A program made the position numbers and the translations under genes. Shown one piece after another: positions 11,383-64,000 of a stretch of DNA of 64,000 bases. The DNA comes from Candidatus Heimdallarchaeota archaeon (lineage in GTDB: Archaea; Asgardarchaeota; Heimdallarchaeia; JABLTI01). The stretch is taken from contig JAUWKS010000003.1 of assembly GCA_030614005.1 (NCBI GenBank), positions 1,354 through 65,353 of the forward strand. The letters are read 5' to 3'. Position 1 is the stretch's first letter. Every line of letters begins with the position of its first letter. The notes beneath the pieces are model-generated. The model searched no databases and was not told the DNA's origin. It saw nothing but the letters and a program-made list of their open reading frames with translations.

Positions 11383-12273
11383 ATGAAACAAATGCCCTCA
11401 AAACAAGTAAATAAGACAAATCTAAAGGAATCAGTTATTGAAATTAAAAAGAAATTCAATATTGTTGGACGAACAAGTGAATTGATGAGATCACTTGCAG
11501 CAAAAGCTGCTGGAAGACATATCCTCTTAGAAGGACCTGTTGGAGTTGGAAAAACGGAAATTGCTCATGCCCTTGCTGCTTATTTAAACACTGAATTTGT
11601 TAGATTTGATGGAGATGAAAGATACCATCCTGATAAATTGGTTGGCCATTTCGACCCTCCAGTTGTCTTAGAGAAAGGTTATTCCTTCGATTCTTTTGTA
11701 TCAGGACCTCTTATTCGCGCTATGAATAGTGGTGCTATTCTCTTTGCAAATGAGATCAACCGTTGCCCAGAATCCACACAAAATGTTCTGTTATCAGCAA
11801 TGGATGAAGCAAGAATTGTAATACCAAAACTTGGAGAAGTAAATGCAAAAGATGGTTTCTTTATAATTGCTACACAAAATCCAGTTGAATTTATTGCAAC
11901 AACACCACTAGGTGAAGCTATCAAAGATAGATTCGTTTGGATTAGGCTTGATTATCAATCTGCGGCAGAAGAAAAACAGATTGTTGAAGCAAAAATGAAA
12001 GATTCTCCAAAAAATCTTGTTGATTACTCAGTTGCTATTATAAGAGAAACACGTATTTCACCTAAATTACGAAGAGGAGCAAGTATCAGAGGTGCAATTG
12101 ATTTAGCTTCAATTATTTTTGAATTTGAAGATCGACCACTTCAAACTTGGATTGATATTAGTATTATGGCCCTTGCAACTAAGATAGAATTGGAAGATGG
12201 TATTGAAGAGAAAATTGAGATTGTTATAGAAGAAATTGTACGTAAGGTTATTGGAAAGTTTTTTCGGACCTAG
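11383..12273 (+). CDS. MoxR-family AAA+ ATPase
   Basis: Walker A LLEGPVGVGKTEIAHALA, Walker B-like LFANEINRCPE, sensor and arginine finger; about 296 aa, typical of MoxR (AAA_3). Confidence 0.75.
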   Translation: MKQMPSKQVNKTNLKESVIEIKKKFNIVGRTSELMRSLAAKAAGRHILLEGPVGVGKTEIAHALAAYLNTEFVRFDGDERYHPDKLVGHFDPPVVLEKGYSFDSFVSGPLIRAMNSGAILFANEINRCPESTQNVLLSAMDEARIVIPKLGEVNAKDGFFIIATQNPVEFIATTPLGEAIKDRFVWIRLDYQSAAEEKQIVEAKMKDSPKNLVDYSVAIIRETRISPKLRRGASIRGAIDLASIIFEFEDRPLQTWIDISIMALATKIELEDGIEEKIEIVIEEIVRKVIGKFFRT

Positions 12274-12283
12274 TGAGATAGCA

Positions 12284-13345: not shown

Positions 13346-13424
13346 TGTAATATGAATATAACTGAAAAATAATAACAAAATTTCAATTCTATAAAAATAA
13401 AAAAAATAAGAAGAGGATCCAAAA

Positions 13425-13730
13425 TTAAAGATTGAACATTTTGGATAAATCTTCAGTTTCTTCTTCTACTTGTGGTTTTTTCTTTCTAGTGTAAGCAGAG
13501 ATTAGTTCAGGATGGTGGAATTGTACATGTTCTCTCCAATTCTTTACCATGGTACCACAGTAACCACAGATACTTAACGCCTCTTTCTCTTCTCTTCTCT
13601 TCAAATATTCGGCATATTTTGGATGCTTTCTTCTCATATGTTCTTCTACGTCGTCGACTAAGCATTGACAAATTTTGCAAAATTTAAGCCCTTGTCTTTT
13701 ATTTTGAATAATAGATGATTTAGCACACAA
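13425..13730 (-). CDS. Small C2H2-type zinc-finger protein (two fingers)
   Basis: CKICQCLVDDVEEHMRRKH and CGYCGTMVKNWREHVQFHH both fit C-x2-C-x(9-12)-H-x(3-4)-H; basic, about 100 aa. Start codon uncertain (TTG at 13730). Confidence 0.5.
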   Translation of the reverse strand: MCAKSSIIQNKRQGLKFCKICQCLVDDVEEHMRRKHPKYAEYLKRREEKEALSICGYCGTMVKNWREHVQFHHPELISAYTRKKKPQVEEETEDLSKMFNL

Positions 13731-13865
13731 TTTGAAATCCTCGGCGTATTTTTAGATTAAAAATTCATTGTTTCTTTATCAAGAATTAACAATCAAGATA
13801 CAATATATTAAAATCTTAGCACTTACTATAAAAGTATTACTCGTGTGCCATTTTTTCGAAAAATG

Positions 13866-14100
13866 TGCAGTAACAAAGAGCTAAATCATGTGTTTTTATT
13901 GTCATTTTGTCAATAAAAAAATTACTGTACTATCTAATTAGTACCTTTTTTGCAAAAAAATAGGCATAAATTTCTGCCGTTTTTTGTGTTTTTTTGTCCG
14001 TAGAAAGTGAAAGCAGTACATTTTAAAAGACATCATTTCTCTTTTCACATAGTTCTTTGGAAAAAAATAAAAGCAGTAATTATATTGTATTCACTGCTAG
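13866..14100. promoter_or_regulatory. Promoter region of the dmrX-like operon carrying repeated AAAGCAGTA / GCAGTA motifs
   Basis: AAAGCAGTA at 14010-14018 and again at 14070-14078 (exactly 60 bp apart); GCAGTAA at 13867-13873; inverted copy ACTGCT at 14093-14098; palindromic TACTGTACTA at 13923-13932; TATA-like TTATATT at 14079-14085; AGGAG at 14108-14112 before the ATG at 14127. Confidence 0.3.
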
Positions 14101-14126
14101 ATATCTAGGAGCAAAGAGATTCAATT

Positions 14127-15020
14127 ATGACTTTACGAATTGCTTGGGCGATTACAGGCGCAGGTTGCTGGTTAACAGAAAGTTTTGCTGTTCTAGGAAA
14201 ATTGTTGAAAAAAGACAATATTAAAATCGACTTATTCTTCAGTGAAGCTGGTAGGGAAGTTGCTCAATGTTACGGTGTGTTTAAATCTCCTGTACCATTG
14301 AAAACGGCATTTATAGATAAGATTCGTGAAATACCAAATTTTAATGAGGATATCTTTATGCCTAATTTTATTGAAAAGTTTCAATGGTTAGGTGCCAAGG
14401 ATACTCGTGATCTTAAGGACACTCTGATTGAAAGGTCCCCAGAAGAAGAATTTGATTTTGAGGAAGCTTTCCGTGATGTGGTTTTTGAAATAGATGAAGG
14501 TTCTAGTTTTCCAACAGCAGCAACAGCTTCAAACAATAGATATGACGCGATAATCATTTCTCCTGCGACAGGTAATACTGTAGCAAAAATTTCCCAAGGC
14601 ATTGCAGATAATTTAGTTTCAAACTTGGCAATAATGGGTAGTAAAAGTGAAAGCACTCCTGTAATTGTTATTCCAACCGATTTCAAAGAAGGAATATCAA
14701 AAAGTTATCTACCAATTATGCTTCATTCCGATACATGCAGAAAATGTGCTGAATGTTCTTCACTTTGGGCTTGTAAACCTGGTGCAATAAGAAGAAAACG
14801 AGGAAAAGTGCAAATCCATCGTTTGAAATGTACTGGTTGTTTGGATTGTGTAAGATATTGTCGACATGGTATCATTTCTTTTCTCGAAGAAATTGAAGTT
14901 CACGTTAGACCACGTGAGGCTGAAGCAACTAACTTACTCAAAAGCCAACATGGTTTTCTTATCATGGAAACTCCTGAAGAAGCTTACAACTACATTTGTA
15001 AGAATTTGAAAAAGAGCTAG
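14127..15020 (+). CDS. DmrX-like archaeal flavoprotein with C-terminal 2x[4Fe-4S] ferredoxin domain (putative dihydromethanopterin reductase)
   Basis: N-terminal Flavoprotein-family motif (IAWAITGAGCW...; IIISPATGNTVAKI); C-terminal CRKCAEC...CKP and CTGCLDC...C cysteine clusters. Confidence 0.55.
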   Translation: MTLRIAWAITGAGCWLTESFAVLGKLLKKDNIKIDLFFSEAGREVAQCYGVFKSPVPLKTAFIDKIREIPNFNEDIFMPNFIEKFQWLGAKDTRDLKDTLIERSPEEEFDFEEAFRDVVFEIDEGSSFPTAATASNNRYDAIIISPATGNTVAKISQGIADNLVSNLAIMGSKSESTPVIVIPTDFKEGISKSYLPIMLHSDTCRKCAECSSLWACKPGAIRRKRGKVQIHRLKCTGCLDCVRYCRHGIISFLEEIEVHVRPREAEATNLLKSQHGFLIMETPEEAYNYICKNLKKS

Positions 15021-15079
15021 CTTACAGTTTGTGCAAACTCTCTTAATACTAGAGTTAATTTACTTTATAATGGAGTTGT

Positions 15080-16708
15080 ATGTTTATGTTAAATTCCAAA
15101 AGAAAAAAAAACACTAAAATCCTTGTTTTAACTGGACGCTCTGCGGAAAAAATAGTTAAAAGCAGCGTTCCATCAAATGTAACCGTTAAAGTTTTGCCGA
15201 TTGACGTTGCTGCTTTTATTAATAAGGATTTAATATTAAAGAATTTAACAAAAGAAGAAGCACAAAAATATGACTTAATTTTAGCACCAGGTTTTGTTCA
15301 AGGGGATTTGGTTCCCTTATATGCTTTGCTTGGAGTACCAGTTGTAAAAGGACCAAGATACGCAAGTGATATCAAATTAGCTGTTACTGAATTAGATTTT
15401 GAAGAGTTCTCTTCAAAGTATTCTGCTGATAAATTAATAAAGAAGAAGAAATATTCTCAAACGAGACAATTTCTAGATGATGGATTTAATAAACCATTAA
15501 TAGAAAAATCAAAAGAATTTATTCTTGGCATTAGGAATGCTTTTCCGATAGGGGTAAATCGCCCACCTTTAGTAATGAGTGAAATTATTGATGCACCAAA
15601 ATTGACTATGAAGGAAGTGATAACAAGAGCACAATTCTTCATCAATAGCGGTGCTAATGTGATTGATATTGGTGCAATAGCAAAAAACCCTCAACCAAAA
15701 AAAATCAAAGAGATAGTTTCTGCACTCCAAAAATTGAAAAAAAATAATAACTTTATTTTGAGTATTGATACACTTAATGAAGAAGAGATTATTGCTGCAG
15801 TTGAAGCAAAAATTGATTTAATCTTAAGTATAGATCATGGAAATGTTGATCAGTTGATTGATAAAATACCAAAAGAAATTGGAATTGTTTTTTTACCAAC
15901 AAATGTAAAGGAAGGTGTTATGCATAAAACACCTGAAGAACGAGTAAAATCTTTAATTAAATTAAGGGACAAATTACGAGCTGCAGGGCACACAAAACTT
16001 TTCGCTGATCCAATAATAGAAATGCCAATTTATCCTGGTTTTGCTTCGTCTCTCGAAAGTTATATTCAATATAGAAAAATCGATTCGACCACTCCAATGA
16101 TGACTTGTGTAGGTAATGTTACCGAATTTATTGAAGCTGACCCCGTTGGAATAAATACCTTATTTGGTTGCTTAGCAGTAGAATTGGGCATCCAATTACT
16201 TTTGATGACAGATTATAGTGTAAAATGTCGTGGTGGAACAAAAGAGATTGTAAAGGCAAGAGATCTAGCTTTTGCTGCTAAGAAGAGAAATACTCCACCA
16301 ATAGGTCATGGTATTAACATACTTCTGGCCAAGAGCAGAACCGATTTTGAACTCGAGATACCTATAAAGAAGGACTTGGAAATTGTCGACCTCACAAGTG
16401 ATGATGGAGCATTATATTCAATGGATTATGAAATGGACCCAAAAGGTAGTTTTACGATTTGGATTAATTATCAAAATCAGAAGATCTATGTTTCTCATTT
16501 AGGTATTTCCAGTAAGAAACCTGATCTATTACTTATATCCTCTGAAGCGAGAATGCTTTTTGAAGAAATTACTAAAAGAGGGCTACTATCAAAAATAGAT
16601 CATGCGTTTTACCTTGGAAGAGAATTAGAACGAGCAGAAGTGTGTCTCTATCTTGGGAAAACATACATCCAAAACGAACAGACATTTAAAGACTCAGAAT
16701 ATTTCTAG
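15080..16708 (+). CDS. Dihydropteroate-synthase-like pterin-binding protein with extra N- and C-terminal domains (MptH/MJ0301-like, methanopterin biosynthesis)
   Basis: The central region resembles the DHPS pterin-binding TIM barrel (...GANVIDIGA...ILSIDT...). At 542 aa with flanking domains it matches the unusual archaeal DHPS homologs; it is adjacent to the DmrX-like gene. Confidence 0.45.
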   Translation: MFMLNSKRKKNTKILVLTGRSAEKIVKSSVPSNVTVKVLPIDVAAFINKDLILKNLTKEEAQKYDLILAPGFVQGDLVPLYALLGVPVVKGPRYASDIKLAVTELDFEEFSSKYSADKLIKKKKYSQTRQFLDDGFNKPLIEKSKEFILGIRNAFPIGVNRPPLVMSEIIDAPKLTMKEVITRAQFFINSGANVIDIGAIAKNPQPKKIKEIVSALQKLKKNNNFILSIDTLNEEEIIAAVEAKIDLILSIDHGNVDQLIDKIPKEIGIVFLPTNVKEGVMHKTPEERVKSLIKLRDKLRAAGHTKLFADPIIEMPIYPGFASSLESYIQYRKIDSTTPMMTCVGNVTEFIEADPVGINTLFGCLAVELGIQLLLMTDYSVKCRGGTKEIVKARDLAFAAKKRNTPPIGHGINILLAKSRTDFELEIPIKKDLEIVDLTSDDGALYSMDYEMDPKGSFTIWINYQNQKIYVSHLGISSKKPDLLLISSEARMLFEEITKRGLLSKIDHAFYLGRELERAEVCLYLGKTYIQNEQTFKDSEYF

Positions 16709-24205: not shown

Positions 24206-26887
24206 TTAATCTTCAGGGGGTATTGAATCCTCTTCAGCTTGCGAAGTTTCTTCTAAAGCTTTTTGTGCTTTAGCTATATTATCTTCTTTATTATCTTCTT
24301 CCTTAGAAAATTCCATTTCACGTTCAACTAAAACATCTAGAATTTTAAGTGAAAGCGTTTGGCAATGATCAATAATTCGTTCTGCTTCTAAAGTATCAAC
24401 ATAGAGTTGTTCCTCAGAGCCTTTGATTAATGGAAGAATAATTGAATTCCAAATCCCTTTGGCTTCTGTGAAGAGTATTTGCGCATCAGTAGCAAATTCA
24501 GTTAATCCTTCTCGAGATGCTGTATCTAAGGTATGAGGAGTCATTTTTTTGTTTAATAAATCCTCTAATTCTTTTTCATACCCTAATAAAATAGTGATAG
24601 TCTTTTTCATTTCTTCTTTCTTTTGATCAATGACTGAAGGAGCTACTTCTTCTCTCTTCTTTGGAAGGTCAATTGTTAGCTCTTGAACTGGTTCCTCTGG
24701 TACCTCCGTTGGAATATCTGCTGCAAGCTCTGTTTCAGAAATAACCAATGTATCAGCATCCTCTTGACTTGATCTCATTGTCTCGTCAAATCGTTTCTTT
24801 GCTGCTACTTCGATATTATCTCGTTCAGTTTTCTCCCAGGACATTTTGCGACCTTTAGCCTCTTCACCAGCAAACAATTCTGATTCTTGTCGTTCTAATT
24901 CTTTTTTATGTGAAGACTTCTTAGGTCTGAACTGTCTAGCAACTAGAAATGAGAACGTTAAGAATAATGCAATTGTTGCTACGCAGATTATTACTATGAA
25001 CATAATTTGAGCGTAATCAATGGGTTCAGCGACGCTTGGGGGGAAAGACTCTGGATCTAAAGGATCAGTACCATAATTTACTTCAATACCATCATTAAAA
25101 CCATCCCCGTCGGTATCTGGATTTGTAGGGTCGGTCCAAATACGTGATTCAAAATCAGTTGTGAGACCATCCCCGTCTAGATCTAAATCAACGTTATCAG
25201 CAACAAGTGGATTTAACCCAAACTTAACTTCATACCCATCAGAGAGAGTGTCTCCATCCGAATCAAAATTAAGTGGATCAGTTTGATAATCATTAACTTC
25301 TTCTCCATCTAATAGAAAGTCACCATCTGTATCTGCTAGATGAGGATCCGTTCCTTCTTGATATTCTTCAAGATTTGTTAACCCATCTTCATCAGCATCA
25401 ACAGAAGCATCTGTGCTATTTGTTGGATTAAGATTTTCTAAGATTTCATAATCATCAGGCATACCATCGGAGTCTGTATCACTTAGCAGTGGATTTGTTC
25501 CGTAGATTAAAATTTCATTTCCATCTGAGATGGTATCTCCGTCTGTATCACTTAGTAGTGGATTAGTTCCATAAATTGCTTCATCTAAATCAGAAAGTCC
25601 GTCTCCGTCCGTATCGATGGAACCATAGACAATATATGCTTCTGTTGTAAGTTGGTATCGTTCTACATAGGCAATGTAATAACTACCAAACTTATCAATT
25701 GTGATTGATGGATCATGAGCGATACTAGAGGATGAGCTTATTCTTTTTTCTAAACCCCAATTATTAGCAGCATTTTTCTGTTTAAGATAGACTAGTGAAT
25801 CTCCGGAAATATCTGATTCAAATACAACAATACTATTACCTTTTTGATCTACAGCAATTCCGAAATCACTATCATCAACTGCATAGGAATGAATGGATGT
25901 TGGTGAAGACCAAGCACCTGCTGCAGCTTTTGCTTGAGCAGTAATGTAATAGATATTGTTGGTTGTTCCATTATCTCTGAAAATAACTTCGATATTTTTA
26001 CTATAATTGTTAAAGGCAATTACGGGGTCAATAGGCGAGTAAGCGACATTAGTGATTTTCTCTTCAGACGTCCAAACTGATCCGTTCTCTGAGTAGCAAT
26101 AATATAATTCTTGCTCACTTGCTCTGCTATCTGACCAGATTAAATGAAGCGTATCGTTGTTATCAACCGTTAAACCGAGCTGTGTTCCAGCAGCAATTTC
26201 TGCTCCGTTAGTAATTCGGATAATTGGTGTATCCCAAAGACCTGTTGTAGCATTATATTTTGTATAATAAAGATCTCCTAGAGCATTATCAGTTGTGTCT
26301 CTCCATACTAAATGTACCAAACCAACACTATCAGTTATTGTCATTGGATTTTCAGCATCACCACTGTTTGCTGTTAGACTAGTTTTTGCTCCAATAGTAA
26401 AATCATCTTCAACAATTCTTTCTTGCAACTCAAAATCATCCAGAGGAGCTTCATCCTCCTCAAACACAAAATGAATGGATCCGTTAAAATCTGGAGTAGG
26501 ATTGTAGCCACTTGGTAGTGCAGCTAACACAGTATCAATTACTAATGGATCTGACCAAGAACTGCTACTATTACCAATAGAGAAATAGATAGTACTTACT
26601 GGGCTTGTATCTGGATTGATAATATCGATCCATGAAACTCCTACCATTCCTGTTAAAGGACTATAGCTTACTCGAGAATGAGATGAATTTGTTCCTGTAT
26701 TAGAAATTCTTTCACCATCAGTAACAATGACTGCATTTGGATTGTATGTGACTGCTAATGGTTCTTCAAAATCTAAAGGACTAACTCCAATAGTATTTGG
26801 TGATTCATCAAACCCCTGAATAGCAATTGGTAGTACTAAACAAATAAACAAAACAAAAATAAAGGTAAGATAAGTTAACCTTTTCAT
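24206..26887 (-). CDS. Type-I membrane surface protein with an Asp-box-like beta-propeller, TSP3 calcium-binding repeats, one TM helix and a cytoplasmic helical tail of about 270 aa
   Basis: ATG at 26887 gives the signal peptide MKRLTYLTFIFVLFICLVLPIAIQG. Repeated ...LHLIW.D / ...W[ST]... blades, e.g. YYCYSENGSVWTSEE. Many DTDGDGLSD / DSDGDTLSDGYE (DxDxDGxxDxxE) repeats. TM IMFIVIICVATIALFLTFSFLV followed by RQFRPKK and a long charged tail. Confidence 0.6.
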   Translation of the reverse strand: MKRLTYLTFIFVLFICLVLPIAIQGFDESPNTIGVSPLDFEEPLAVTYNPNAVIVTDGERISNTGTNSSHSRVSYSPLTGMVGVSWIDIINPDTSPVSTIYFSIGNSSSSWSDPLVIDTVLAALPSGYNPTPDFNGSIHFVFEEDEAPLDDFELQERIVEDDFTIGAKTSLTANSGDAENPMTITDSVGLVHLVWRDTTDNALGDLYYTKYNATTGLWDTPIIRITNGAEIAAGTQLGLTVDNNDTLHLIWSDSRASEQELYYCYSENGSVWTSEEKITNVAYSPIDPVIAFNNYSKNIEVIFRDNGTTNNIYYITAQAKAAAGAWSSPTSIHSYAVDDSDFGIAVDQKGNSIVVFESDISGDSLVYLKQKNAANNWGLEKRISSSSSIAHDPSITIDKFGSYYIAYVERYQLTTEAYIVYGSIDTDGDGLSDLDEAIYGTNPLLSDTDGDTISDGNEILIYGTNPLLSDTDSDGMPDDYEILENLNPTNSTDASVDADEDGLTNLEEYQEGTDPHLADTDGDFLLDGEEVNDYQTDPLNFDSDGDTLSDGYEVKFGLNPLVADNVDLDLDGDGLTTDFESRIWTDPTNPDTDGDGFNDGIEVNYGTDPLDPESFPPSVAEPIDYAQIMFIVIICVATIALFLTFSFLVARQFRPKKSSHKKELERQESELFAGEEAKGRKMSWEKTERDNIEVAAKKRFDETMRSSQEDADTLVISETELAADIPTEVPEEPVQELTIDLPKKREEVAPSVIDQKKEEMKKTITILLGYEKELEDLLNKKMTPHTLDTASREGLTEFATDAQILFTEAKGIWNSIILPLIKGSEEQLYVDTLEAERIIDHCQTLSLKILDVLVEREMEFSKEEDNKEDNIAKAQKALEETSQAEEDSIPPED

Positions 26888-27153
26888 TCCAGCTAAAGTA
26901 ATTTTTGATGACACTTTTCAGACTTCCTACTCAGTTTAGTATTTAGACTATGGGAAAAAAAAGCTTTTTATAGTGAACATTAGAGGTAAAATGATAAGAT
27001 ATCAGTTTAGTAGCTAATTGATAGTGCAAAGCTATTTTCATTCCTAGTTAATTTAAAGAACGGAGTATAGGAAAACTTCTTAAAACAATTTCAAGGGTTG
27101 GAGAAATAGTTAATAAACACTTTGTTGTGCAAATAGAAAATAAGGTGCAAATA

Positions 27154-36996: not shown

Positions 36997-39900
36997 ATGC
37001 AATTGATGCACAAAAATAGGTACCCCCCGCAATTAGTATTAATTGGCAGTTTATTCATATTTTTAATGTTATTCAATTCAGCTGTAAATGCTATCGAAGT
37101 GGAAGTTGGCAGTGAGGTAGGAATGACAGCAATACCGCCACAAATGGGTGGGGACTCTTTTGAGACACAAGCAACGAAAATCAATGGTTATGATTGGGAA
37201 GATGAGGAGGTTTTTGAAACATTTGCTCCGCTAAATGATTTGAAAATAGCTCTTGATGGCGATGAAAACGTTCATGTGTTTTGGTCTGGTGTAGAAAATG
37301 GTGATTATTATCTATTCCATAAAATTAGATACAAAGTAAATGAAACTTGGAGTGAAAGAGAAAGTTTAGGTACAACCTCTTCTGAAACTGGTGCAGTATT
37401 AGATGTCCAGACAGATGATGCCGGTATAATCCATCTTACCTGGCAACAAAATTCAATAGTAAGATACAGACGTTACAATTATGGTATTTGGGAAAATCCA
37501 CAGGTTGTCAGTAGTGGTATACATCCAACTATTGATATTAGTACAACAAACGGTGCTCCAAATGTAATTTACAAAAGAAAAGTGGATAGTAGGTATATAG
37601 ATTATAATTATTATTTTACTGAATATAATACTTCTACTGAAATTTGGAATGCAGAACAAATCGCTATGGGTGACTATTCTCCAAATGGAGGGTCATCTTA
37701 TGCTTATTCACTTGTAAAAGATGGAGAATTTGACAAACCGTATATTTTTACAAGCTTTCTAGATAGCTATTGGTATTGGGATGATTCATCAGGTTATTGG
37801 GTTAGAAAAGTAGTTGATACAATCAACTATAAAATACTGAGTCGAGATAGCGAGACTTCAACTTTCTCTAATGATGGATTTGATATTGAAAGTGCAATAA
37901 GCGTTACTGTGCCAGTAGTAACAAAACCACTGCTAATCAATAGTCCATCTGATGGGTTATTTGCTTTTTATAATAAACCAAAAGATGATGGAACTTATGA
38001 GATTACCTATGCTAAAAAAGCTGGCTCTTACTGGAGCAATCCAATAACACTATCTGATAAAGCTGCTCTGAAGTGTGAAATGACCGCAGTAGTGGATCAA
38101 TTTGGAAAAATAACCCTTATTTGGAATTATGTACACCAAACAATGATAGAAGGACAACTAAGATCGTCCGCTGAATTATATATGAAAACATTTTCTCCAT
38201 ACACACAAACATGGTCAGATGATTTACCATTAAATACTATAGAAATGTATACTCACTTTCCATCAATGACTCAAGATACAGATGGTAATTTGTACTTGGT
38301 ATACATCGATATAAATATCACTGATTCATCAGAGAAGAAATTAATTTTTAGAAAAGGTTGGACAGATTCGGATGAAGATGGGTTAACAAATAATGTGGAA
38401 ACAGAGATACATGGAACTGACCCTTATGACCCCGATTGCGATGATGATCAAATGCTGGATGGAGAAGAAATAGCATTAGGTTTTGATCCTTTTAACCCCG
38501 ATGAAGATTCCGATGGAATGGCAGATGGGTATGAAGTGCACAATGATTTAGATCCTTATAGTGACGATTCCTTGGGTGATTATGACTCAGATAACTTGAC
38601 AAATATGGAAGAATTCTTAGCTGACACATTTGCTAATGATAACGATACTGACGATGACGAAGTGAGTGATTATAACGAGTTAAAGGTGTATTTCAGTAAC
38701 CCGAAAAACCCTGATTCAGACGAAGATGGATTAAGCGATGGAATAGAAATAAACATTGTTGGTTCTAATCCAAATTCTAATGATACTGACAATGATACTA
38801 TGTTAGATTATTATGAGTGGACTAATGAGTTGAATCTGACTCTAAATGATACTTTTGAAGATTTTGACGGAGATGGATTGTATAATATTTATGAATTCTT
38901 ATACAATATTAAGGCGAATAAAGCAGATACCGAGGGGGATGGTTTGGGTGATTATGAAGAAGTAATGATTTATTTCACTATACCAAATAAATTCGATACG
39001 GATGACGATGGACTTTGGGATGGTATTGAAGTATACACCTATGGGACAAACCCATTATTACCGGATACAGATAGTGACTTTTTGTTAGATAAAACAGAAA
39101 TTGATGCCGGTTTAAATCCCGTCGATAACGACACAGATAATGATTTAATGCTAGATGGTTATGAATATATTTTTGGTCTTGATTACTTTGATGATTCAGA
39201 TGCAAATTTGGATTATGATGGTGATACTCTTACAAATCTAGAAGAATCTTATTTATGGACAAATCCATTTGATGATGATTCTGATGGCGATAAAATAGTT
39301 GACAATTATGAGCTTGAATTAGGTAGTGATCCTGCAAAATATGATACCGACGACGACGGTTTAAACGATTATAATGAGATATTTGTAATTGGTTCTGATT
39401 TTGATAATAATGATACCGATAGCGATGGTTTGATAGATGGCGATGAAGTATTTATTTATCAATCAAATCCACTCATTGTTGATTCCGATGGTGACACTCT
39501 CGATGATGGTGATGAAGTATATATTTATCACACAAATCCTGCTTCTACAGACACCGATGGTGATCTTCTTGCTGATAATTTAGAGTTAGATAACAATTCA
39601 AATCCACTGGTCGTTGATACTGATTTAGATGGTATGGATGATTATTTTGAATGGCTCTATGGACTTGATCCCACAGAAGATGATTCACTAATTGATACCG
39701 ACCAAGATGGTGTGCCAAACTTCGAAGAGTATCTTCATAATACTAATCCTTTGGTTAATGATACAGATCTGGATGGCTTAACTGATTTCGATGAAATTTA
39801 TGTTTATTATACTGCTCCTGATTCCAACGATACCGATGAAGACTCTCTTGCAGACTACGATGAAATAATGGTTTATGGAACATCCCCTCATGATCCAGAC

Positions 39901-40260
39901 AGCGATGACGATGGCATTTTAGATGGAGAAGAAGTTAGGATTGGTACTGATCCCACAGAAATTGATTCTGATAAGGATGGTGTTTCCGATGGTCAAGAGC
40001 TTTTAGATGGAACAGATCCCACTGACTTCTATGACAACAAAGATATCAGACGCTCGCGCTTACTGATCGTCACCTTTTCTGTTATTGTTGGAGGCATTCT
40101 TGTGTATTATATTGGTCCCTTCCTTATCATAAAATTATCACGTAATGAAGAAACTAAATGGGTTCAAGAAGGACTTTTATGGCGAAAACGGAAAGGAACT
40201 GAAATCCTCGAAACGTCACCTCATTCTGAAGAAATTTCGGAATCGAATATGGAAGAATAA
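36997..40260 (+). CDS. Large type-I membrane surface protein with an Asp-box-like beta-propeller, about 25 TSP3 calcium-binding repeats, a C-terminal TM helix and a short cytoplasmic tail
   Basis: Signal peptide ([20 protein letters not shown]); W-containing blade motifs ([30 protein letters not shown]); TSP3 repeats from about residue 455 to 1010 ([36 protein letters not shown]...); [26 protein letters not shown]; tail of about 45 aa. Confidence 0.6.
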
Positions 40261-46463: not shown

Positions 46464-46934
46464 TTATTGTTCTAATCTTTTTGCTGCTTCAATTATGTAC
46501 TCTCGAGCGTTCTCTCGAGATGCTTGCTTGATTATTAATTGAATAAAGAAGTTTAGCTTGTCGTCATCCAAACTAAATCGTTCAACTAAAAAACCCTTTA
46601 TTTCCGCTTCAGATGAGTTTGTAGGTAAATCAGCAATATATTCAGCAACATCTAATATAGAAGCATCTTGAACTGTTTCCCTTTTTGGTATGCCAAAAAT
46701 TTGTTTTGAAAGTTCTTCCAAGTAATTGTTATGAGCTTTAACAATGACTTCATATTCTTCTCCTTCATACTTCGGTAAAATGTGAATTTCTAAAGAACGA
46801 TCCTCATTGCGCAAACTGTAACCCAATTCTTCATCAAAATTTGCTTTTCTTATTTCTACTCTTTCTTCTAGCTTATCGATGAGTGCTTCAACTTCTGAAT
46901 CGGATTTAAAATTGTAAATTAATTCCTTAGCCAA
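46464..46934 (-). CDS. Hypothetical acidic protein (156 aa)
   Basis: ORF with a TTG start; no motifs. Confidence 0.35.
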   Translation of the reverse strand: MAKELIYNFKSDSEVEALIDKLEERVEIRKANFDEELGYSLRNEDRSLEIHILPKYEGEEYEVIVKAHNNYLEELSKQIFGIPKRETVQDASILDVAEYIADLPTNSSEAEIKGFLVERFSLDDDKLNFFIQLIIKQASRENAREYIIEAAKRLEQ

Positions 46935-47092
46935 ATGAGTTCACCTGAAAGCCTAACACCAAAGTTAGTCTTTCTAATTACTATTGAACAATTCTAATTT
47001 TAATAAGTATCTATTTATGTTTAAAATTGAAAGAAAAAGAGTAATTGTTGGTAGTATTGTTCTACCAACTCTTCAATATATTTCTGGAATGT

Positions 47093-49150
47093 CTATTGTT
47101 TTCTTCTTTTTATTGAAACCGTTGCAACCAAAATTATTGCAAAAATGCTGGTAACGAAAACATATCCAGGAATAAATCCTGAAGCACTTGTTGGAGGTAT
47201 TGTAATATATACTTCACCCGGATTTGGTGTATCTGTTATGAAATCTACAGAACAATCATCTGTGTCGTGATTTGCTGGGTCTCTTTGTAGGGTCAAAGAT
47301 TCATCCATATCACCTGTCCAAGCAGTTATCGATGGAAGACTTCCAGTACCCCAAACAACTGCATCTACCGATGAGGTTGTAGGCGTATCTAATTTCAGAT
47401 AATCACCTGTATTTGCAAGAGTAATGGAACCATAGGTGAAATCTGCTGGGTATGTATAAGCTCCAAGAGCAGTCATTTGTTCTGTGAATGCAGTGGCATT
47501 TCGAGCAAATATCAAAATGTCTCCTGCTGTAAACTCTGTTCCTGCTGGTATAACATAGGTTGCTCCATTATCTGAAACTTCCCATCCTCCAATACCAACA
47601 TCGAAAGAGAACCCATTATACAACTCGAAGAACTCTCCTTCCGGTTCAGGTGTATCTGCATCAAATCTGACTTCAGAAAAGAGTAACAACCATTCAACAC
47701 TATTTATGAGATTAACATCAATTTCATACTCAATAGTAGATAGATCAGATTTCGTACCCACTAGTTTCAATGTATATAATCCATCAGCATAAATTGAAGA
47801 ATCTAAATTATAGGTAACAACTGCAGAAGGATTCGTCCAAGTATTAGCTAATGTATCTCCAACGAATAATTCACCTTTAATGTAAGTATCAATATAGAAT
47901 CCGGCATCTATAACATAAGTTCCTTCAATAACTTCATGCTCTTCTATGTCAATAATTTCCACTACGCCAGTATATCCTGTAGGAACTTCACTATTTGCCC
48001 AGTCCCAATCAAAGACTGTTTTGAAATATGATGCAACATTGGTGTTTTTAACAATCGCGCCTGCTTCTCGATTATTCACTACGGAATTGTTAGACCAATT
48101 AATACTCGAGACTGCAGTAACTTCTCCATCAGCACTAACATATTTGTTATGATTATGACCGAGTCCTTTGAAGAATCGTATCTCAATATCATTTGACAAC
48201 AGAACTTCTGTAACATTCGCATTAGGCGTTCCCGGTTCTGGTATCAATACTCTAACATCAACTCCTCTATTTGCTGCAGCAATAATATCATCTAATAAAT
48301 AACAATCAAACTTAATGTATTGCTGTGAAATATCAAGTGTTGTTGTTGCATTATCTATGAGTGAAGATAATAACTGATAGCTATTATCGGGTGCGAATAT
48401 TGGTGTGACTTCCATATATTCATTTATAACTTCAGGAGTGTCAAATGGATGAGTGTATGTTCCTCCTGTTTCATTTCCTTGTAATAAACCAAGATGAGGT
48501 TCAGTACCTGCATACAGATTGCCAATACCTTGGTCATCGAAGAAAACATTTTCATAAAACGCCGCTATGCTTGCATCTTCAAATGCAAATCCTAATTCCC
48601 TATTGGTTCTTGCATAGTTTACTTGTGGAATACTCGAAGGAGCCCAGTTCCCTGAATAAACAAAGGTTTCAAGACCATCCACAATCCAGAATTTAGCATG
48701 AGTAAAGGTAAAACTAGAACTACACCAAGTAACTATTACTCCAGCAGCATCAAGTCGAAAAGCAGCTTCTTCTGTGTAATCATCTTCGTACCCACTAACC
48801 CGATCATGGGATAATGAAACTTGAACATCTACACCTCTATCTTGAGCAGCAATTAATCGATTGACTAATGGTTCACTCGAGAGTGTATAAACTTCGAGAT
48901 AGAATGACGTTACTGAATCATTTAATGCTTTCATAATCACTTCATAAGCTGAATCCGGCCCGACGAAACAAGTGACCTTGCTCACTCCCGTGAACGTTTG
49001 GGTAGGAATTGCATCGGGGTTTACCCATGGTTCAGAAATATTTATTGGATCTTTCGCAACAACAACTGTTACAGATGGGTTGAGTACCATTAACACTGTA
49101 GGCAGCATTAGCATAGTTGCTACAAAAATCACTAGTCTATTTATTTTCAT
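47093..49150 (-). CDS. Secreted phospholipase-D-superfamily protein (two HKD motifs) with a C-terminal lamin-tail domain and a PGF-CTERM-like membrane anchor
   Basis: Signal peptide MKINRLVIFVATMLMLPTVLMVL; HKD motifs THAKFWIVDG...GNWAPSS and HNHNKYVSADG...SINWSNNS; lamin-tail-domain signature EFFELYNGFSFDVGIGGWEVSD; C-terminus ...IPGYVFVTSIFAIILVATVSIKRRKQ preceded by a Thr/Pro/Ser linker. Confidence 0.6.
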   Translation of the reverse strand: MKINRLVIFVATMLMLPTVLMVLNPSVTVVVAKDPINISEPWVNPDAIPTQTFTGVSKVTCFVGPDSAYEVIMKALNDSVTSFYLEVYTLSSEPLVNRLIAAQDRGVDVQVSLSHDRVSGYEDDYTEEAAFRLDAAGVIVTWCSSSFTFTHAKFWIVDGLETFVYSGNWAPSSIPQVNYARTNRELGFAFEDASIAAFYENVFFDDQGIGNLYAGTEPHLGLLQGNETGGTYTHPFDTPEVINEYMEVTPIFAPDNSYQLLSSLIDNATTTLDISQQYIKFDCYLLDDIIAAANRGVDVRVLIPEPGTPNANVTEVLLSNDIEIRFFKGLGHNHNKYVSADGEVTAVSSINWSNNSVVNNREAGAIVKNTNVASYFKTVFDWDWANSEVPTGYTGVVEIIDIEEHEVIEGTYVIDAGFYIDTYIKGELFVGDTLANTWTNPSAVVTYNLDSSIYADGLYTLKLVGTKSDLSTIEYEIDVNLINSVEWLLLFSEVRFDADTPEPEGEFFELYNGFSFDVGIGGWEVSDNGATYVIPAGTEFTAGDILIFARNATAFTEQMTALGAYTYPADFTYGSITLANTGDYLKLDTPTTSSVDAVVWGTGSLPSITAWTGDMDESLTLQRDPANHDTDDCSVDFITDTPNPGEVYITIPPTSASGFIPGYVFVTSIFAIILVATVSIKRRKQ

Positions 49151-49228
49151 AAAAGATAATTAGCATCTCATTAAATAAATAGGTAGCGCCTAAAAAAATG
49201 AGTTGTGGGATAGAGGTATCCCGATTAA

Positions 49229-49678
49229 TTATTTCTGTAATATTTCAGATGCTTTTACAAAAACTTCTGCTGGATTTGGTCGTCTTAGTTGGTTTTTTAT
49301 TAATCTTTGATATTGAAGATATTGACGATCATCGAGTTCCATTATTTCTATAATCTCTTCTTTTGTTTTCTCCATTATTCCAGGAATAGCTATTAGCTCT
49401 TGAGCAAATTCTAATGGACTTAAGCGTTGTTCTGCAGTTCTTGCGGGTTCGCCCAAAATAGATTTGAAAAAGTTAATATCTTCTTGAGTTGCACCCCAGA
49501 CATTAAATGAATACTTGTCTTCCTCTTTTTGTTCTTTGATTTGTAATTTTGGTTTCACTAAAATGAATCTATTAACACCATCATCGGCGATATGAACAGT
49601 AGTTGCATATTTTTCAGCGATTTTGTCTAGTTGATCTGGAGAGTAGTTTTCTTTACTAATAAAAAATACGGCTTTCAT
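49229..49678 (-). CDS. Hypothetical protein (149 aa)
   Basis: Clean ATG ORF between lplA and the PLD-like gene. Confidence 0.45.
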   Translation of the reverse strand: MKAVFFISKENYSPDQLDKIAEKYATTVHIADDGVNRFILVKPKLQIKEQKEEDKYSFNVWGATQEDINFFKSILGEPARTAEQRLSPLEFAQELIAIPGIMEKTKEEIIEIMELDDRQYLQYQRLIKNQLRRPNPAEVFVKASEILQK

Positions 49679-51373: not shown

Positions 51374-52609
51374 ATGTTACCTAGAAAAAATTTGTTGGAG
51401 AGTAAAAGTGTGCCAAAAAGAGATGTTATTACAGAAAAAGTATTCACTATAAGAAAACCTAGTTTCTCTAAACTTCTCTCTCCAACTATAACTGCTGCTG
51501 AGAAAGAAATAAATGACCATCTAAAACGTAATGACATTGAATCAACAGCAGACCCTCGTAATGAGGGAGACATTTTAGTTGTTTTCATACATGGTTTTGC
51601 TGCTTCTAAATATTGCTGGCTTGATCCTGATGTTGGCAATATGGGTTGGGTTAAGGATTACGAAAATACCCCACCTATTCGAGATTTTGGTTGGCACACT
51701 ATCCCTCCACCTCCCTTTGTGCCTATTGATTGGACATTATCAAATCAAATAATCATTAATGGTGCATCAACAGAAATGGATAAGGCTGGAGTTGAGTGGT
51801 TAACATACTCCCAAGGTTCAGCTTTTGGTGATATTGAAAATTCTGTAGATGAATTAAAAAATATTATGCGTGAAATAAGAATTATCTACGGTCATAGAAG
51901 AATCATAATTATCGCTCATTCACGAGGTGGACTGATCTCAAAAAGATATCTTGATACAGTTCAAGATACTGACGTGGAGAAACTTATTACGTTTGGAACA
52001 CCGTTTGGTGGGACATTTATGTCTTCAATAGAGACATTTCGAAAACCTTCGAAACATTTCTTGAATAGATTTAAAACAGCAAGAAAATTGTGGGATGTCA
52101 GCCAAGAGCGTCGTGTCGAATCTGTTGCAACAAAACAAATGGCACCAAACTCGGAATTTCTCACGCAATTACATAATAGTGGTTGCAGAAATGATGTCAA
52201 ATATGTTAATGTCGCAGGATCAAATTCGCACTACACAAATGTGTATTCTTGGAGATGGGCAACATCCTCTTGGAAAAGAAATTTTCGACTAGCTAGAAGA
52301 AAGAAAAAGGAACGAAAAAAACTGAAAGCAAATAATCACCCTCCAATAGATTGGTGGAATCTCCCAAATTATCCATTTATCAATGCCCACAATTGGATTA
52401 TGGAACCTGTCAAATTATTTGAAATTTATCCTAAAATAGGTTATCCTGAAGTAATGCAAGGTGATGGTGCTGTTTCAATTATAAGTGCTCTTTCTGATCT
52501 TCCGGAAGTTAAGCATTATGTTATACATAAAAATCATATAGATATGACTTGTTGTATTGATGGGTATGAAATAATGCATAAAGAATTGGAATTAAGCATG
52601 GAAGATTAA
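51374..52609 (+). CDS. Alpha/beta-hydrolase-fold lipase/esterase-like protein
   Basis: Nucleophile elbow IIAHSRGGL (G-x-S-x-G variant AHSRG); VVFIHGFAASKY oxyanion region; C-terminal Asp/His candidates; basic insert RRKKKERKKLK. Confidence 0.55.
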   Translation: MLPRKNLLESKSVPKRDVITEKVFTIRKPSFSKLLSPTITAAEKEINDHLKRNDIESTADPRNEGDILVVFIHGFAASKYCWLDPDVGNMGWVKDYENTPPIRDFGWHTIPPPPFVPIDWTLSNQIIINGASTEMDKAGVEWLTYSQGSAFGDIENSVDELKNIMREIRIIYGHRRIIIIAHSRGGLISKRYLDTVQDTDVEKLITFGTPFGGTFMSSIETFRKPSKHFLNRFKTARKLWDVSQERRVESVATKQMAPNSEFLTQLHNSGCRNDVKYVNVAGSNSHYTNVYSWRWATSSWKRNFRLARRKKKERKKLKANNHPPIDWWNLPNYPFINAHNWIMEPVKLFEIYPKIGYPEVMQGDGAVSIISALSDLPEVKHYVIHKNHIDMTCCIDGYEIMHKELELSMED

Positions 52610-56804: not shown

Positions 56805-57335
56805 TTGATTAACATAGCTAAGACAATACTCAACACATTTATTACTGCTGTTTTTGCGTTAAGTGTAACGTTATTTTCCGCTTATTTTATTGACCGTCAA
56901 CCAGTAACATTTTGGGTTTTAGTAGTGTTAATTTGGATTATTGCAGGTATTATTAATGGACTCTTTTTTGAAGAGTGGAAAGAAGCGTTAATATCCGGTG
57001 GACTAATAAGTGGCACTATTTTTCTCGTTATATCTTTGTTTTTGATAATACTAAAGCTATTTTCTGAAGCAATAGTTGAATACTTTTCAGGTTTGAACAT
57101 CTACCAAGTAGAGGATATCCTTGGAATCTCCTTTTTGATTGGTTTGTTGTTTGCTCTTGGAGGTGGAGTGATTTTTACTGGCTCCGCTATAGCAACAATT
57201 TATATTACAAAAAGTATTAAAAAATCAGAAGGTATTCAATCAACTCAAAATTACGAATCAGAGTTATTTGAACAGTACGAAACCCCTGATGATGCGGGGG
57301 AGTATATTTCCTCTGAAAATAAGGAGGAAATTTGA
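56805..57335 (+). CDS. Hypothetical membrane protein (4 TM helices, acidic C-terminus)
   Basis: TTG start with GAGGAA 5 nt upstream; strongly hydrophobic helices. Confidence 0.45.
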   Translation: MINIAKTILNTFITAVFALSVTLFSAYFIDRQPVTFWVLVVLIWIIAGIINGLFFEEWKEALISGGLISGTIFLVISLFLIILKLFSEAIVEYFSGLNIYQVEDILGISFLIGLLFALGGGVIFTGSAIATIYITKSIKKSEGIQSTQNYESELFEQYETPDDAGEYISSENKEEI

Positions 57336-57922: not shown

Positions 57923-58873
57923 CTATTTGTCTTTAATGTAATCCAATGGATAATGCTTTTCGATTAAATTTTTTATATTCACTTCAGTATGATTGTTAAC
58001 GGATCTTACCATTTTATCAAGTAAGCTTTTGACTATTTGAACTGCTCGTGCTGCAGGATCCATTTCACCAACAAATATGCCAATGACATTTTTCTTCTCC
58101 TTTATGAGAACTAATTGTTTATTATCTACTTGAAGGAGAGATTCTGCAGTCTCAAATCCAGCCATCTGTTTAATAAATTTGATTATCTCATAGCGACCTT
58201 TTTTGAACAATGGAACATTTTTAGCTTGTGTCTTTGGTTTTCCAAAGAGAGTTGTTTCTACTTCCATTCCTTCACTTTTGAAGAAATAGTAACCATGGAT
58301 TTTAACAATGTTCTTAGGAATATCTTCGTCTTTACATAATTCCAATGTTAACCAATCCCAAGATTCGAAGAGCATTGCACCTGTTAATGCTGAGCATCTG
58401 GTAAAATTGTATTTTCTTTGCAAACGTACTAGTTCACCGAAATCAATTATATTTAATATCTCATCTGTAGAAGCAGCATCTTCAAGATCTATTTTATTTG
58501 AAATAAATAAAATAGGTGCTGTCTTATTAAAAGAGAGAGCTCTATTAAATTCCTCCGAAGCTAATTCAAATCTGCCCTTATCTGCAGAATCTAAAACAAA
58601 GACAAGTCCATCTGCGCTTGTAATAAATTTCTCCCATAAGGATTCTCTCAAAGGAGTTTGTCCCCCTAAGTCGTACACTATAAATTCCAAAGATCGGTAT
58701 TTGTATACTTCAATATTAACTCCGAAAGTAGGTCGAGTAAGAGTAAATTCTGATCTTAGTATTCTTTTAACAATTGTTGTTTTTCCTGCACCATCTAAAC
58801 CAACGATAGCAACTGATTTCTTTTCAGCATTTCCTTCTTCTTTTGCTTTAGTTAATCTTCTAAATAAAGACAT
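57923..58873 (-). CDS. Arf/Sar-family small GTPase fused to a C-terminal alpha/beta domain of about 130 aa (roadblock/longin-like?)
   Basis: N-terminal amphipathic helix (MSLFRRLTKAKEEG), G1 GLDGAGKTT, G2 T in ...LTRPTFGVN, G3 YDLGGQ, G4 NKID, G5 CSAL. The G domain ends near residue 185; residues 190-316 (...KIHGYYFFKSEGMEV...NVIGIFVGEMDPAARAVQIVKSLLDKM...) form an extra domain. Confidence 0.7.
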   Translation of the reverse strand: MSLFRRLTKAKEEGNAEKKSVAIVGLDGAGKTTIVKRILRSEFTLTRPTFGVNIEVYKYRSLEFIVYDLGGQTPLRESLWEKFITSADGLVFVLDSADKGRFELASEEFNRALSFNKTAPILFISNKIDLEDAASTDEILNIIDFGELVRLQRKYNFTRCSALTGAMLFESWDWLTLELCKDEDIPKNIVKIHGYYFFKSEGMEVETTLFGKPKTQAKNVPLFKKGRYEIIKFIKQMAGFETAESLLQVDNKQLVLIKEKKNVIGIFVGEMDPAARAVQIVKSLLDKMVRSVNNHTEVNIKNLIEKHYPLDYIKDK

Positions 58874-63101: not shown

Positions 63102-64000
63102 TTATATTTCATCCCGATCTGCAATCGGATTTCTAGTGAATAGAACAAACGAATAAATCAGAAATGATCCATAAATGAGTTTTATTATTATTGGGATACT
63201 TTGATGAATTCCTACTTTTAGAAAACTTGCGAAAAATGAGAAATAGGAAGGTACAACTAAACCAATGAGAAAGACTGCAATGATTATCTGAATTATTAAA
63301 TCATATTTTTCCATCTTCTTTCGTTGAATGGTTGTTTTTCCTCCTAATACTACAGATAATCCTCCTATAGGTGCAACTATTAGCATAGAAAGACCAATAG
63401 GGATAAACAACGCATTCCGAATGACTTGTTTTATTTTCCAATAGTACTTTCTCATATCCTCAAATTGACGATTGAGTACAGTTCGTGGGTCTTTTTTCCG
63501 TCGAATAAAGAAAAAAATTCTTCTCTTTTTCTCTTCTTTTACTCTCGAAATGAATTCTTTTGTTGGGTCTCTATAAACTCTGATAGCAGGAACGATATAA
63601 AGTGAAATTATACCTACTGCTGCCATAATTCCTTTGTAATATTCCATAACATTATCTAAAGTATTAAGTGCGCCAATTTGTGTGCCATCTACCCATCGAA
63701 TTATTGGGTTAATGAGTCCAATTATTGTTAACACAATACCCACAATGATCATTATGTAAATTGGAACTAACATAATTAATTTGAATCTTCTCGGATCAAT
63801 ATCTTCTTGAGTAGTAATTACTTTCTCAGATAGTTTTCCACGGTATTGTTTTTGTTTTTCTTTGAGTTTCTTCTCCTCTTTTGAGAGTTCTTCTGAAAAT
63901 TCTTCTTGATCCTCTTTAAGTTCCTTTTCTTTCTTCTCAAGCTTTGCATATTCTTTCTTAGCTTTCTTCTCATTCCACTTTCCAGTTTCTAGCTTATCTT
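63102..64000 (-). CDS. Hypothetical membrane protein, 5-prime truncated by the window end
   Basis: ORF track gives 63102..63773 from an internal Met, but the frame stays open upstream to position 64000. The upstream part encodes a charged coiled-coil segment (...EKKEKELKEDQEEFSEELSKEEKKLKEKQKQYRGK...) before the TM helices. Confidence 0.4.
   Translation of the reverse strand, partial: DKLETGKWNEKKAKKEYAKLEKKEKELKEDQEEFSEELSKEEKKLKEKQKQYRGKLSEKVITTQEDIDPRRFKLIMLVPIYIMIIVGIVLTIIGLINPIIRWVDGTQIGALNTLDNVMEYYKGIMAAVGIISLYIVPAIRVYRDPTKEFISRVKEEKKRRIFFFIRRKKDPRTVLNRQFEDMRKYYWKIKQVIRNALFIPIGLSMLIVAPIGGLSVVLGGKTTIQRKKMEKYDLIIQIIIAVFLIGLVVPSYFSFFASFLKVGIHQSIPIIIKLIYGSFLIYSFVLFTRNPIADRDEI

Follow-up and report, generated by a model that had tools for sequence, protein, structure and literature searches.

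A candidate cell-surface phosphodiesterase of the phospholipase D superfamily, with a lamin-tail domain and a sorting-type C-terminal tail, in a Heimdallarchaeota archaeon

Introduction

What is the role of a protein that, in a single chain, combines a signal-type N-terminus, a phospholipase D (PLD) catalytic domain, a lamin-tail domain (LTD) and a C-terminus resembling an archaeal sorting signal? The question is raised by a 685-residue protein, here called PLD-LTD, that is encoded on contig JAUWKS010000003.1 of a Candidatus Heimdallarchaeota archaeon (assembly GCA_030614005.1). The stretch analyzed comprises 64,000 nucleotides (positions 1,354 to 65,353 of the contig; G+C ~33%) and is referred to throughout as the window; all coordinates below are window positions. 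The evidence presented here favors, by a little more than an even chance, a cell-surface phosphodiesterase in which a PLD head is carried on a β/LTD stalk, with extracellular nucleic acid as the most likely substrate. The coding sequence, taken from the open reading frame (ORF) list of the window, begins with ATG, and its domains are arranged as follows.

47093-49150, minus strand: PLD-LTD surface protein coding sequence; stop codon TAG at 47093-47095
49055-49150, minus strand: signal-peptide-like N-terminus, residues 1-32 (MKINR, 18-residue hydrophobic core, VVVA/KD; helix 3-22 in the AF2 model)
48524-48994, minus strand: PLD lobe 1, residues 53-209 (PLDc_2; AF2 pLDDT >88)
48647-48700, minus strand: HKD motif 1, HAKFWIVD...YSGN, residues 151-168 (sequence, conservation)
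47996-48433, minus strand: PLD lobe 2, residues 240-385 (PLDc_2 and PLDc; Foldseek against two-lobe PLDs, E ~1e-17)
48098-48151, minus strand: HKD motif 2, HNKYVSAD...SSIN, residues 334-351 (sequence, conservation)
47708-47965, minus strand: immunoglobulin-like all-β sandwich domain, residues 396-481 (seven strands in the AF2 model, pLDDT ~90)
47231-47686, minus strand: LTD, residues 489-640 (PF00932; AF2 β-sandwich)
47096-47182, minus strand: C-terminal tripartite tail, residues 657-685 (SGFIPGY, with PGY at 661-663; hydrophobic helix 664-680; KRRKQ 681-685)

An initial annotation, made from the DNA sequence, had placed the gene at exactly these coordinates and on this strand. All of the strings that it quoted are found in the protein: HAKFWIVDG (151-159), HNKYVSADG (334-342), EFFELYN (506-512) followed by GGW (521-523), IPGYVF (660-665), and KRRKQ at the very C-terminus.

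NCBI and ENA records contain an identical protein, and ~90 clusters of full-length orthologs share 47-89% identity with it. Named homologs belong nearly all to Candidatus Heimdallarchaeota or Heimdallarchaeaceae, with a few labeled Thorarchaeota or Bathyarchaeia, and carry public names such as 'phospholipase D-like domain-containing protein' or 'lamin tail domain-containing protein'. When species-representative genomes were scanned, ~40 Heimdall PLD loci emerged, among them those of the closed Ca. Heimdallarchaeum aukensis and Ca. H. endolithica genomes. PLD-LTD is a recognizable member of known domain families, which the records annotate only generically, and the family appears never to have been characterized. 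More distant relatives include a PLD protein of the Promethearchaeota type that lacks an LTD, and bacterial PLD+LTD fusions (Paenibacillus and others; P0095, P0097, P0100, P0102). PLD-only relatives with ~24% identity are common in Candidatus Gracilibacteria (candidate phyla radiation bacteria; L048-L066), the sole sizeable non-archaeal group among the relatives found by the genome scan.

The PLD catalytic head

Assignment to the PLD superfamily is secure. Pfam PLDc_2 matches the whole protein with 137.6 bits (threshold 27; E 3e-40) in two stretches, of which residues 262-384 are the better, and still scores 54.4 bits on the N-terminal part alone; PLDc adds a match of 22.7 bits (threshold 21.9) at residues 331-356. 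Both HKD motifs are intact, the YSGN and SSIN segments completing the pattern HxK(x)4D(x)6-x-S-x-N in each. Among 48 diverse homologs, no substitution occurs at H151, K153, D158, N168, H334, K336, D341, S349, or N351, and S166 is conserved in at least 90%. The two-HKD identity proposed in the initial annotation is upheld; the Asn/Ser partner of the second motif, on which that proposal had been made to depend, is present as the invariant S349 and N351.

An AF2 model built on the 48-sequence alignment has a mean pLDDT of 87 and clear domain boundaries. The two PLD lobes are predicted, with pLDDT ~90, to form a bilobal α/β fold (a prediction, no structure having been solved), which Foldseek aligns to solved two-HKD PLDs with E-values of 5e-18 to 1e-15. 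The model describes a single-chain, two-lobe head in which the two HKD motifs, both complete, would together make up a single active site. HKD-family enzymes use a His nucleophile, proceed through a covalent phospho-histidine intermediate, and need no metal; by analogy, catalysis by PLD-LTD presumably also proceeds via phospho-histidine and is metal-independent.

β-Sandwich, lamin-tail domain and overall architecture

The head is followed by two all-β domains. The first, at residues 396-481, has no match in Pfam, NCBIfam, or PDB sequences. The second, at residues 489-640, is modeled as all-β with high confidence and corresponds to the LTD. The whole protein scores 32.1 bits against PF00932, just under the gathering score of 34.3, and the isolated domain 34.4 and 35.2 bits, which is borderline for this sequence. 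The same profile matches 14 of 14 C-terminal domains tried from the family (best E 1.1e-15), and with the isolated domain above the gathering score and all of these relatives matching, the LTD assignment of the initial annotation stands. The LTD profile found no lamin match among PDB sequences, so nothing points to a special closeness of this domain to eukaryotic lamins. The remaining segments of the AF2 model are a helix at 3-22, a disordered stretch at 23-45, a low-confidence linker at 641-662, and a terminal helix at 663-684.

Comparison of family members shows that the β-sandwich and the LTD behave as one modular unit. It is present twice in paralogs of ~1000 residues and is absent from a 423-residue relative (P0087), in which the C-terminal tail directly follows the PLD head. 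The occurrence of zero, one, or two copies in paralogs defines a design of catalytic head, stalk or binding units, and tail. Certain genomes contain tandem copies of the PLD-LTD gene (L003:7851-13036; L008:2312-7274), and the second copy in the first of these loci (1011 residues) contains the β-sandwich/LTD unit twice.

The signal-type layout of the N-terminus is common to all orthologs. The signal peptide claimed for PLD-LTD agrees with the sequence and with the modeled helix at 3-22, with a putative cleavage site between VVVA and KD. The protein would be exported through Sec and then retained in the membrane by its C-terminal helix, and the β-sandwich/LTD stalk may hold the catalytic head off the membrane surface.

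The C-terminal tail and predicted membrane attachment

The extreme C-terminus carries a signature motif, a hydrophobic helix, and a basic cluster, as originally described, and the AF2 helix at 663-684 agrees with this reading. The Thr/Pro/Ser linker said to precede the motif is present; it is brief in this protein (IPPTSAS), some orthologs having a far longer one. Among curated models, the best match of the 29-residue tail is Heimdall-CTERM (NF045529), with 14.2 bits and E 0.044 against a cutoff of 24. The alignment spans model positions 1-25 of 26, the start of the model (GFIPGF) falling at the same place as GFIPGY in the window protein. Heimdall-CTERM matches 59 of 78 ortholog tails at E<=10 (best E 1.1e-5), and an ortholog whose tail begins SGFIPGF reaches 25.2 bits, above the cutoff; Loki-CTERM (NF033507) matches 31 of the 78 and PEF-CTERM 22. 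Of 81 ortholog tails, 55 (68%) carry a P-[GE]-[FYL] signature, against a background rate of 0.6% in 36-residue segments of these proteins; it lies at a stereotyped distance from the C-terminus (median 27 residues). PGF, PEF, Heimdall, and Loki-CTERM signals share with PLD-LTD this tripartite layout, with P-G/E-F/Y ~27 residues from the end. The setting is also that of Heimdall-CTERM proteins, with the tail at the extreme C-terminus, a signal-type N-terminus, and homologs named as Heimdallarchaeota. On these sequence grounds, the tail is a conserved signal in three parts, similar in kind to PGF/PEF signals, belonging to the Asgard-specific Heimdall-CTERM class and sub-threshold in this protein. 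By analogy with archaeosortase signals, it may be cleaved and the protein re-anchored by a sortase-like enzyme.

The tail is a well-populated example of the poorly documented C-terminal sorting signals of Asgard archaea, the lineage closest to eukaryotes, in which surface biogenesis is an open field of study. The searchable literature, including the paper on closed Heimdallarchaeum genomes, yielded nothing relevant on Heimdall-CTERM or on Asgard archaeosortases or exosortases, and we know of no cognate enzyme for Asgard C-terminal sorting signals. None of the six multi-transmembrane ORFs scanned in the window matches exosortase/archaeosortase Pfam families; they encode UbiA, two ABC-2 permeases, an MFS transporter, and two small proteins that lack a Pfam family (63102-63773, minus strand, 223 residues, ~5 transmembrane segments; 56805-57335, plus strand, 176 residues, ~4 transmembrane segments). 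The tail was seen in no further protein of the window or of ~40 loci spanning +/-10 kb, a sample far too small for a genome-wide judgement.

Since the tail is sub-threshold and the window lacks a sorting enzyme, appreciable weight, short of an even chance, must be given to the alternative that the tail is a permanent single-pass membrane anchor and nothing else, with neither sortase-type processing nor lipid attachment. This would account for a tail that falls below the cutoff of every curated sorting-signal model, for the lack of further tail-bearing proteins in the loci surveyed, and for the 13 of 81 ortholog tails without any recognizable signature. A precedent is offered by the Shewanella nuclease ExeM, the function of which is little affected by loss of its processing site or of rhombosortase (PMC6085458). 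Against it stand the frequency of the signature over background and its fixed C-terminal distance, which are unexpected for a mere anchor, and the breadth of the Heimdall-CTERM matches, one of them above the curated cutoff. A different design is also seen in the remaining large surface proteins of the window, in which a transmembrane helix is followed by a long cytoplasmic tail. Two of these (36997-40260, plus strand; 24206-26914, minus strand) are very large, extremely acidic secreted proteins with net charges of -191 and -111, in which a signal peptide, bacterial TSP3 repeats, and weak BNR-like similarity accompany the transmembrane helix and the cytoplasmic tail.

The initial annotation had gone further and proposed a PGF-CTERM signal read by archaeosortase A (ArtA). 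This version shares the tripartite layout, is in keeping with the Thr/Pro/Ser-rich linker of some orthologs, and gains from PGF being the commonest signature among orthologs (32 of 81). It is nonetheless improbable. The comparison took in the whole protein, two tails on their own, and 78 ortholog tails. The PGF-CTERM model TIGR04126 (cutoff 24.5 bits) gives no match at E<=10 to either the whole protein or the isolated tail, and matches only 5 of 78 ortholog tails weakly (best E 0.045; 6.6 bits in one example); the window protein has PGY in place of PGF; and no archaeosortase was found within the window. According to a review on how archaea build their surface, archaeosortases occur in part of the Euryarchaeota, the group in which ArtA systems have been described (PMC6098224). 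What survives of the claim is the resemblance to PGF/PEF signals at the level of the motif, which is real and conserved; the PGF-CTERM assignment itself does not.

Substrate: nuclease or phospholipase

The initial annotation left the choice between nuclease and phospholipase open. The nearest characterized relatives, ranked by comparing the PLD-LTD family profile with PDB sequences, are listed here.

Nuc endonuclease: E 4.9e-14
Zucchini/MitoPLD: E 6.4e-14
Poxvirus nicking-joining enzyme: E 1.3e-13
SpPLD: E 1.4e-13
PLD3: E ~6e-10
NucT: E 2e-7
Classical Streptomyces phospholipases D: E 4e-4 to 2e-3

Classical phospholipases D are ~ten orders of magnitude weaker than the best nucleases in this ranking. 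The top NCBIfam and PADLOC matches of the protein are DrmC and NucT, both far below their equivalog cutoffs (for NucT, NF010490, 44.9 bits against 211). Bacterial LTDs accompany membrane-associated hydrolases and extracellular nucleases (PMC6085458). With PLD-family nucleases as the nearest characterized relatives by profile, and with LTDs found alongside extracellular nucleases in bacteria, the favored reading, at about an even chance, is a metal-independent nuclease that would act on nucleic acid outside the cell; the sequence evidence leans this way and stops short of a decision. Such an enzyme may serve in phosphate or nucleotide scavenging from extracellular nucleic acid, or in the control of surface DNA. 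Extracellular DNA is a major source of phosphorus in sediments. If PLD-LTD is indeed a surface nuclease, Heimdall-group Asgard archaea would possess a dedicated and widely conserved tool for using or controlling it there. A link to syntrophic cell-cell contact, also suggested in the initial annotation, found no support.

Several observations weigh against a surface-bound nuclease. Foldseek scores are near-equal for SpPLD, the PLD3/PLD4 exonucleases, vaccinia F13, Streptomyces PLD, and human PLD1/2; a substrate call from the fold was rejected, as Foldseek cannot separate nucleases from phospholipases. SpPLD, among the four best sequence matches, is described as a phospholipase (PMC8004604), and the function of the LTD is not settled even in ExeM (PMC6085458). 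The ectodomain is strongly acidic (net -66, isoelectric point 4.05), which is unusual for a DNA-binding enzyme and counts as weak evidence. As to the surface location, the putative cleavage site of the signal peptide is a reading of the sequence, and the shortfall of the tail (14.2 against 24 bits) is joined by the lack of a sorting enzyme in the window and of other tail-bearing proteins in the loci. The argument from acidity was dropped: in the window, both secreted proteins with TSP3 repeats exceed the PLD ectodomain in acidity (median isoelectric point of the window ~6), which makes the acidity uninformative.

The main rival to the nuclease reading is a surface phospholipase D or transphosphatidylase, whose substrates would be lipid head groups in the membrane or envelope of the cell itself or in neighboring bacterial cells. 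A two-HKD monomer is the classical PLD architecture, and Foldseek aligns the model to Streptomyces and human PLD1/2 with E ~1e-16; the top single-sequence PDB match is SpPLD, called a phospholipase; the protein is tethered beside a membrane; and LTDs were proposed to direct hydrolases to membranes, as Mans et al. 2004 are quoted in PMC6085458. The acidic surface might be added as speaking against a DNA substrate, had acidity not proved general among the secreted proteins of this organism. We consider this alternative unlikely, given that classical PLDs reach only 4e-4 to 2e-3 by family profile where nucleases reach ~1e-13, that neither of the two conserved neighborhoods described below contains lipid-metabolism genes, and that the authors of the SpPLD study themselves point out nuclease-like loops (PMC8004604).

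Comparison with known systems

PLD-LTD resembles the Nuc/Zuc/NucT and ExeM-type nucleases and is a member of neither group. Nuc (Salmonella pKM101), NucT, and Zucchini/MitoPLD are the closest characterized sequences by family profile (E 5e-14 to 2e-7) and share with PLD-LTD the HxK(x)4D(x)6GSxN motif and an N-R-E segment after it. They are homodimers of ~155-200 residues with one HKD per chain, whereas PLD-LTD has both halves in one chain and adds the β-sandwich, the LTD, and the sorting-type tail.

The PLD3/PLD4 5'-3' exonucleases and the poxvirus K4-type nicking-joining enzyme are single-chain, two-lobe proteins (Foldseek E ~1e-17; profile E 1e-13 to 6e-10). PLD3 and PLD4 are membrane-tethered, with an extracytoplasmic (lumenal) catalytic domain. 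Their anchor is N-terminal and they have no LTD, in contrast to the C-terminal tail and LTD of PLD-LTD. Identity to these eukaryotic or viral enzymes is only ~17-19%, and nothing in the comparison indicates orthology. Serratia plymuthica SpPLD (PDB 7e0m), which ranks first in both the single-sequence and the Foldseek comparison, is a secreted two-HKD monomer with a catalytic module of similar size; it is 17% identical to PLD-LTD and lacks the LTD, the β-domain, and the anchor.

The closest counterpart in overall design is found in bacteria. Shewanella ExeM comprises a signal peptide, LTD, nuclease domain, linker, and GlyGly-CTERM, associates with the membrane, and acts on DNA in the vicinity of the cell (PMC6085458). 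ExeM/Xds proteins (Shewanella, Vibrio) and PLD-LTD have in common a signal, an LTD, a nuclease or candidate nuclease module, a linker, and a tail of signature, helix, and basic residues. In ExeM, however, the LTD is N-terminal and the catalytic domain is a Ca/Mg-dependent EEP + OB-fold unit, as opposed to a PLD head, and its GlyGly-CTERM signal is handled by rhombosortase, as opposed to the Heimdall-CTERM type of tail. Bacterial ExeM is an architectural analog of PLD-LTD and not a homolog.

Partner genes and transcription signals

PLD-LTD is flanked by two small genes and by candidate transcription signals.

49229-49678, minus strand: partner A, an orphan 149-residue cytoplasmic protein, directly upstream of PLD-LTD with a 78-bp gap (locus comparison)
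46464-46934, minus strand: partner B, a 156-residue distant paralog of partner A, directly downstream of PLD-LTD (BLASTP, hidden Markov models (HMMs))
49192-49222, minus strand: hairpin GGGATA-CCTC-TATCCC followed by a T7 run, between the partner A stop and the PLD-LTD box (scan; -7.5 kcal/mol, z -2.6)
49171-49181, minus strand: TATA-like box (TATTTATTTAA), 21-31 nt upstream of the PLD-LTD ATG (sequence; putative promoter)
47029-47069, minus strand: terminator-like hairpin (GTTGGTAG...CTACCAAC) with a T-rich tract, after the PLD-LTD stop (terminator scan; -11.7 kcal/mol, z -3.1)

Partner A is the constant companion of the gene. Among the loci with at least 500 bp of upstream sequence (n=35), it lies directly upstream on the same strand in 34 Heimdall loci, at a distance of 49-84 bp (162 bp in one); the sole locus without it contains a distant PLD paralog of 26% identity. 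Source locus tags independently confirm the adjacency. Partner B is related to partner A (BLASTP E 0.002; the HMMs of the two sub-families cross-match) and follows the PLD gene in a subset of loci (L002/L007, L003, L006/L025, L008, L009, L017); its source locus tags, too, adjoin those of the PLD genes. The adjacency of partner A extends over two different surroundings. Close relatives are syntenic, with LplA, an ORF, one or two PLD copies, an ORF, PK_C, DUF123, and an M24 peptidase. Relatives of ~50% identity have wholly different surroundings, with an XPD helicase upstream and a DinB polymerase and primase downstream, and a ~150-residue ORF is still found directly upstream, aligning end to end with partner A at 38-39% identity. 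In such loci of the Heimdallarchaeaceae type (L004, L005, also L014 and L038; ~7300-15800), partner and PLD genes stand between an XPD-type helicase and DinB with both primase subunits, a DNA-metabolism neighborhood unlike that in the window.

The partner family is small. It has 44 matches in a collection of 5.8 billion proteins, all Heimdall or Asgard where named. Searching 1.84 billion representatives at full HMMER sensitivity gave only 45 clusters, almost all being stand-alone proteins of ~150-160 residues. The AF2 model of partner A (pLDDT 88.6) consists of an α/β domain (residues 1-81) and a four-helix C-terminal part. Partner A has no signal peptide, transmembrane segment, or conserved catalytic-type residues, and neither partner belongs to a Pfam or PADLOC family. 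Foldseek found nothing for the partner at E<=0.001. Matches to profilin (E ~0.01, TM-score ~0.3) and a weak match of partner B to RT_UG31 (E 0.0017) were treated as noise. At most, a binding or regulatory role may be proposed for partner A, as regulator, inhibitor, or chaperone.

The T-run and the box of PLD-LTD itself lie between the two genes and weaken the case for a strict operon. Of 21 non-redundant intergenic regions from orthologous loci (L002-L044), 18 contain the motif [AT]TATTTA[TA] at -28 to -35 (mode -32) from the PLD start codon, in many cases after a cgata-type element, and in 14 of the 21 a run of at least five T residues lies upstream of the box. In archaea, transcription usually starts ~26-27 nt downstream of the TATA box. 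Judged by its sequence, the conserved box resembles an archaeal B recognition element (BRE)/TATA promoter, and its spacing, set against this rule, suggests that PLD-LTD has its own promoter and a near-leaderless mRNA. Given its own promoter, the adjacency of partner A and PLD-LTD would be conserved without a strict operon. A sigma-70 promoter scan gave results below shuffle expectation, the model not being applicable to archaea.

It is tempting to regard PLD-LTD and partners A and B as an Asgard-specific module, in which the tail would be processed by an Asgard sorting enzyme and the partner would, for example, inhibit, chaperone, or regulate the nuclease. As a whole, this is a speculative proposal to which we give rather low probability; a variant in which the enzyme remodels phospholipids of bacterial neighbors is more speculative still.

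A narrower version, in which PLD-LTD is a secreted toxin and partner A and/or B its cognate immunity protein or inhibitor, neutralizing the nuclease before export as barstar does barnase, is improbable. An orphan cytoplasmic partner adjoins in 34 of 35 loci and in two unrelated chromosomal contexts, the partners lack conserved catalytic-type residues, and their family is tiny and restricted to PLD-bearing genomes; partner B is strongly acidic (net -14). However, proteins that leave through Sec do so unfolded and seldom require an inhibitor in the cytoplasm, PLD-LTD is tethered to its own cell and not released, the PLD and partner genes appear to be separately transcribed, and the fold of the partner matches no known inhibitor.

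A role in anti-phage defense as a DISARM DrmC-like PLD nuclease, prompted by DrmC models being the top PADLOC and NCBIfam matches, is effectively refuted by topology and gene context, as the match (48 bits against an equivalog cutoff of 133) reflects the shared PLD domain alone, PLD-LTD is extracytoplasmic, and there are no DrmA, DrmB, or methylase neighbors.

Nothing about PLD-LTD overturns current knowledge. The parts worth pursuing are the enzyme, if any, that reads Asgard C-terminal signals, and the adjoining orphan partner gene, which is a concrete and testable lead.

Other genes of the window

Two further genes of the window recur in relatives. A 411-residue α/β hydrolase with weak similarity to PGAP1, palmitoyl-thioesterase, and DUF676 (51374-52609, plus strand) is syntenic in close relatives. 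A 316-residue Arf-family small GTPase (57923-58873, minus strand; Arf 132 bits, with Roc and Ras also matching), one of the Asgard 'eukaryotic signature' proteins, occupies the same relative position in two other loci (L002 and L006), and its presence fits the Asgard origin of the window.

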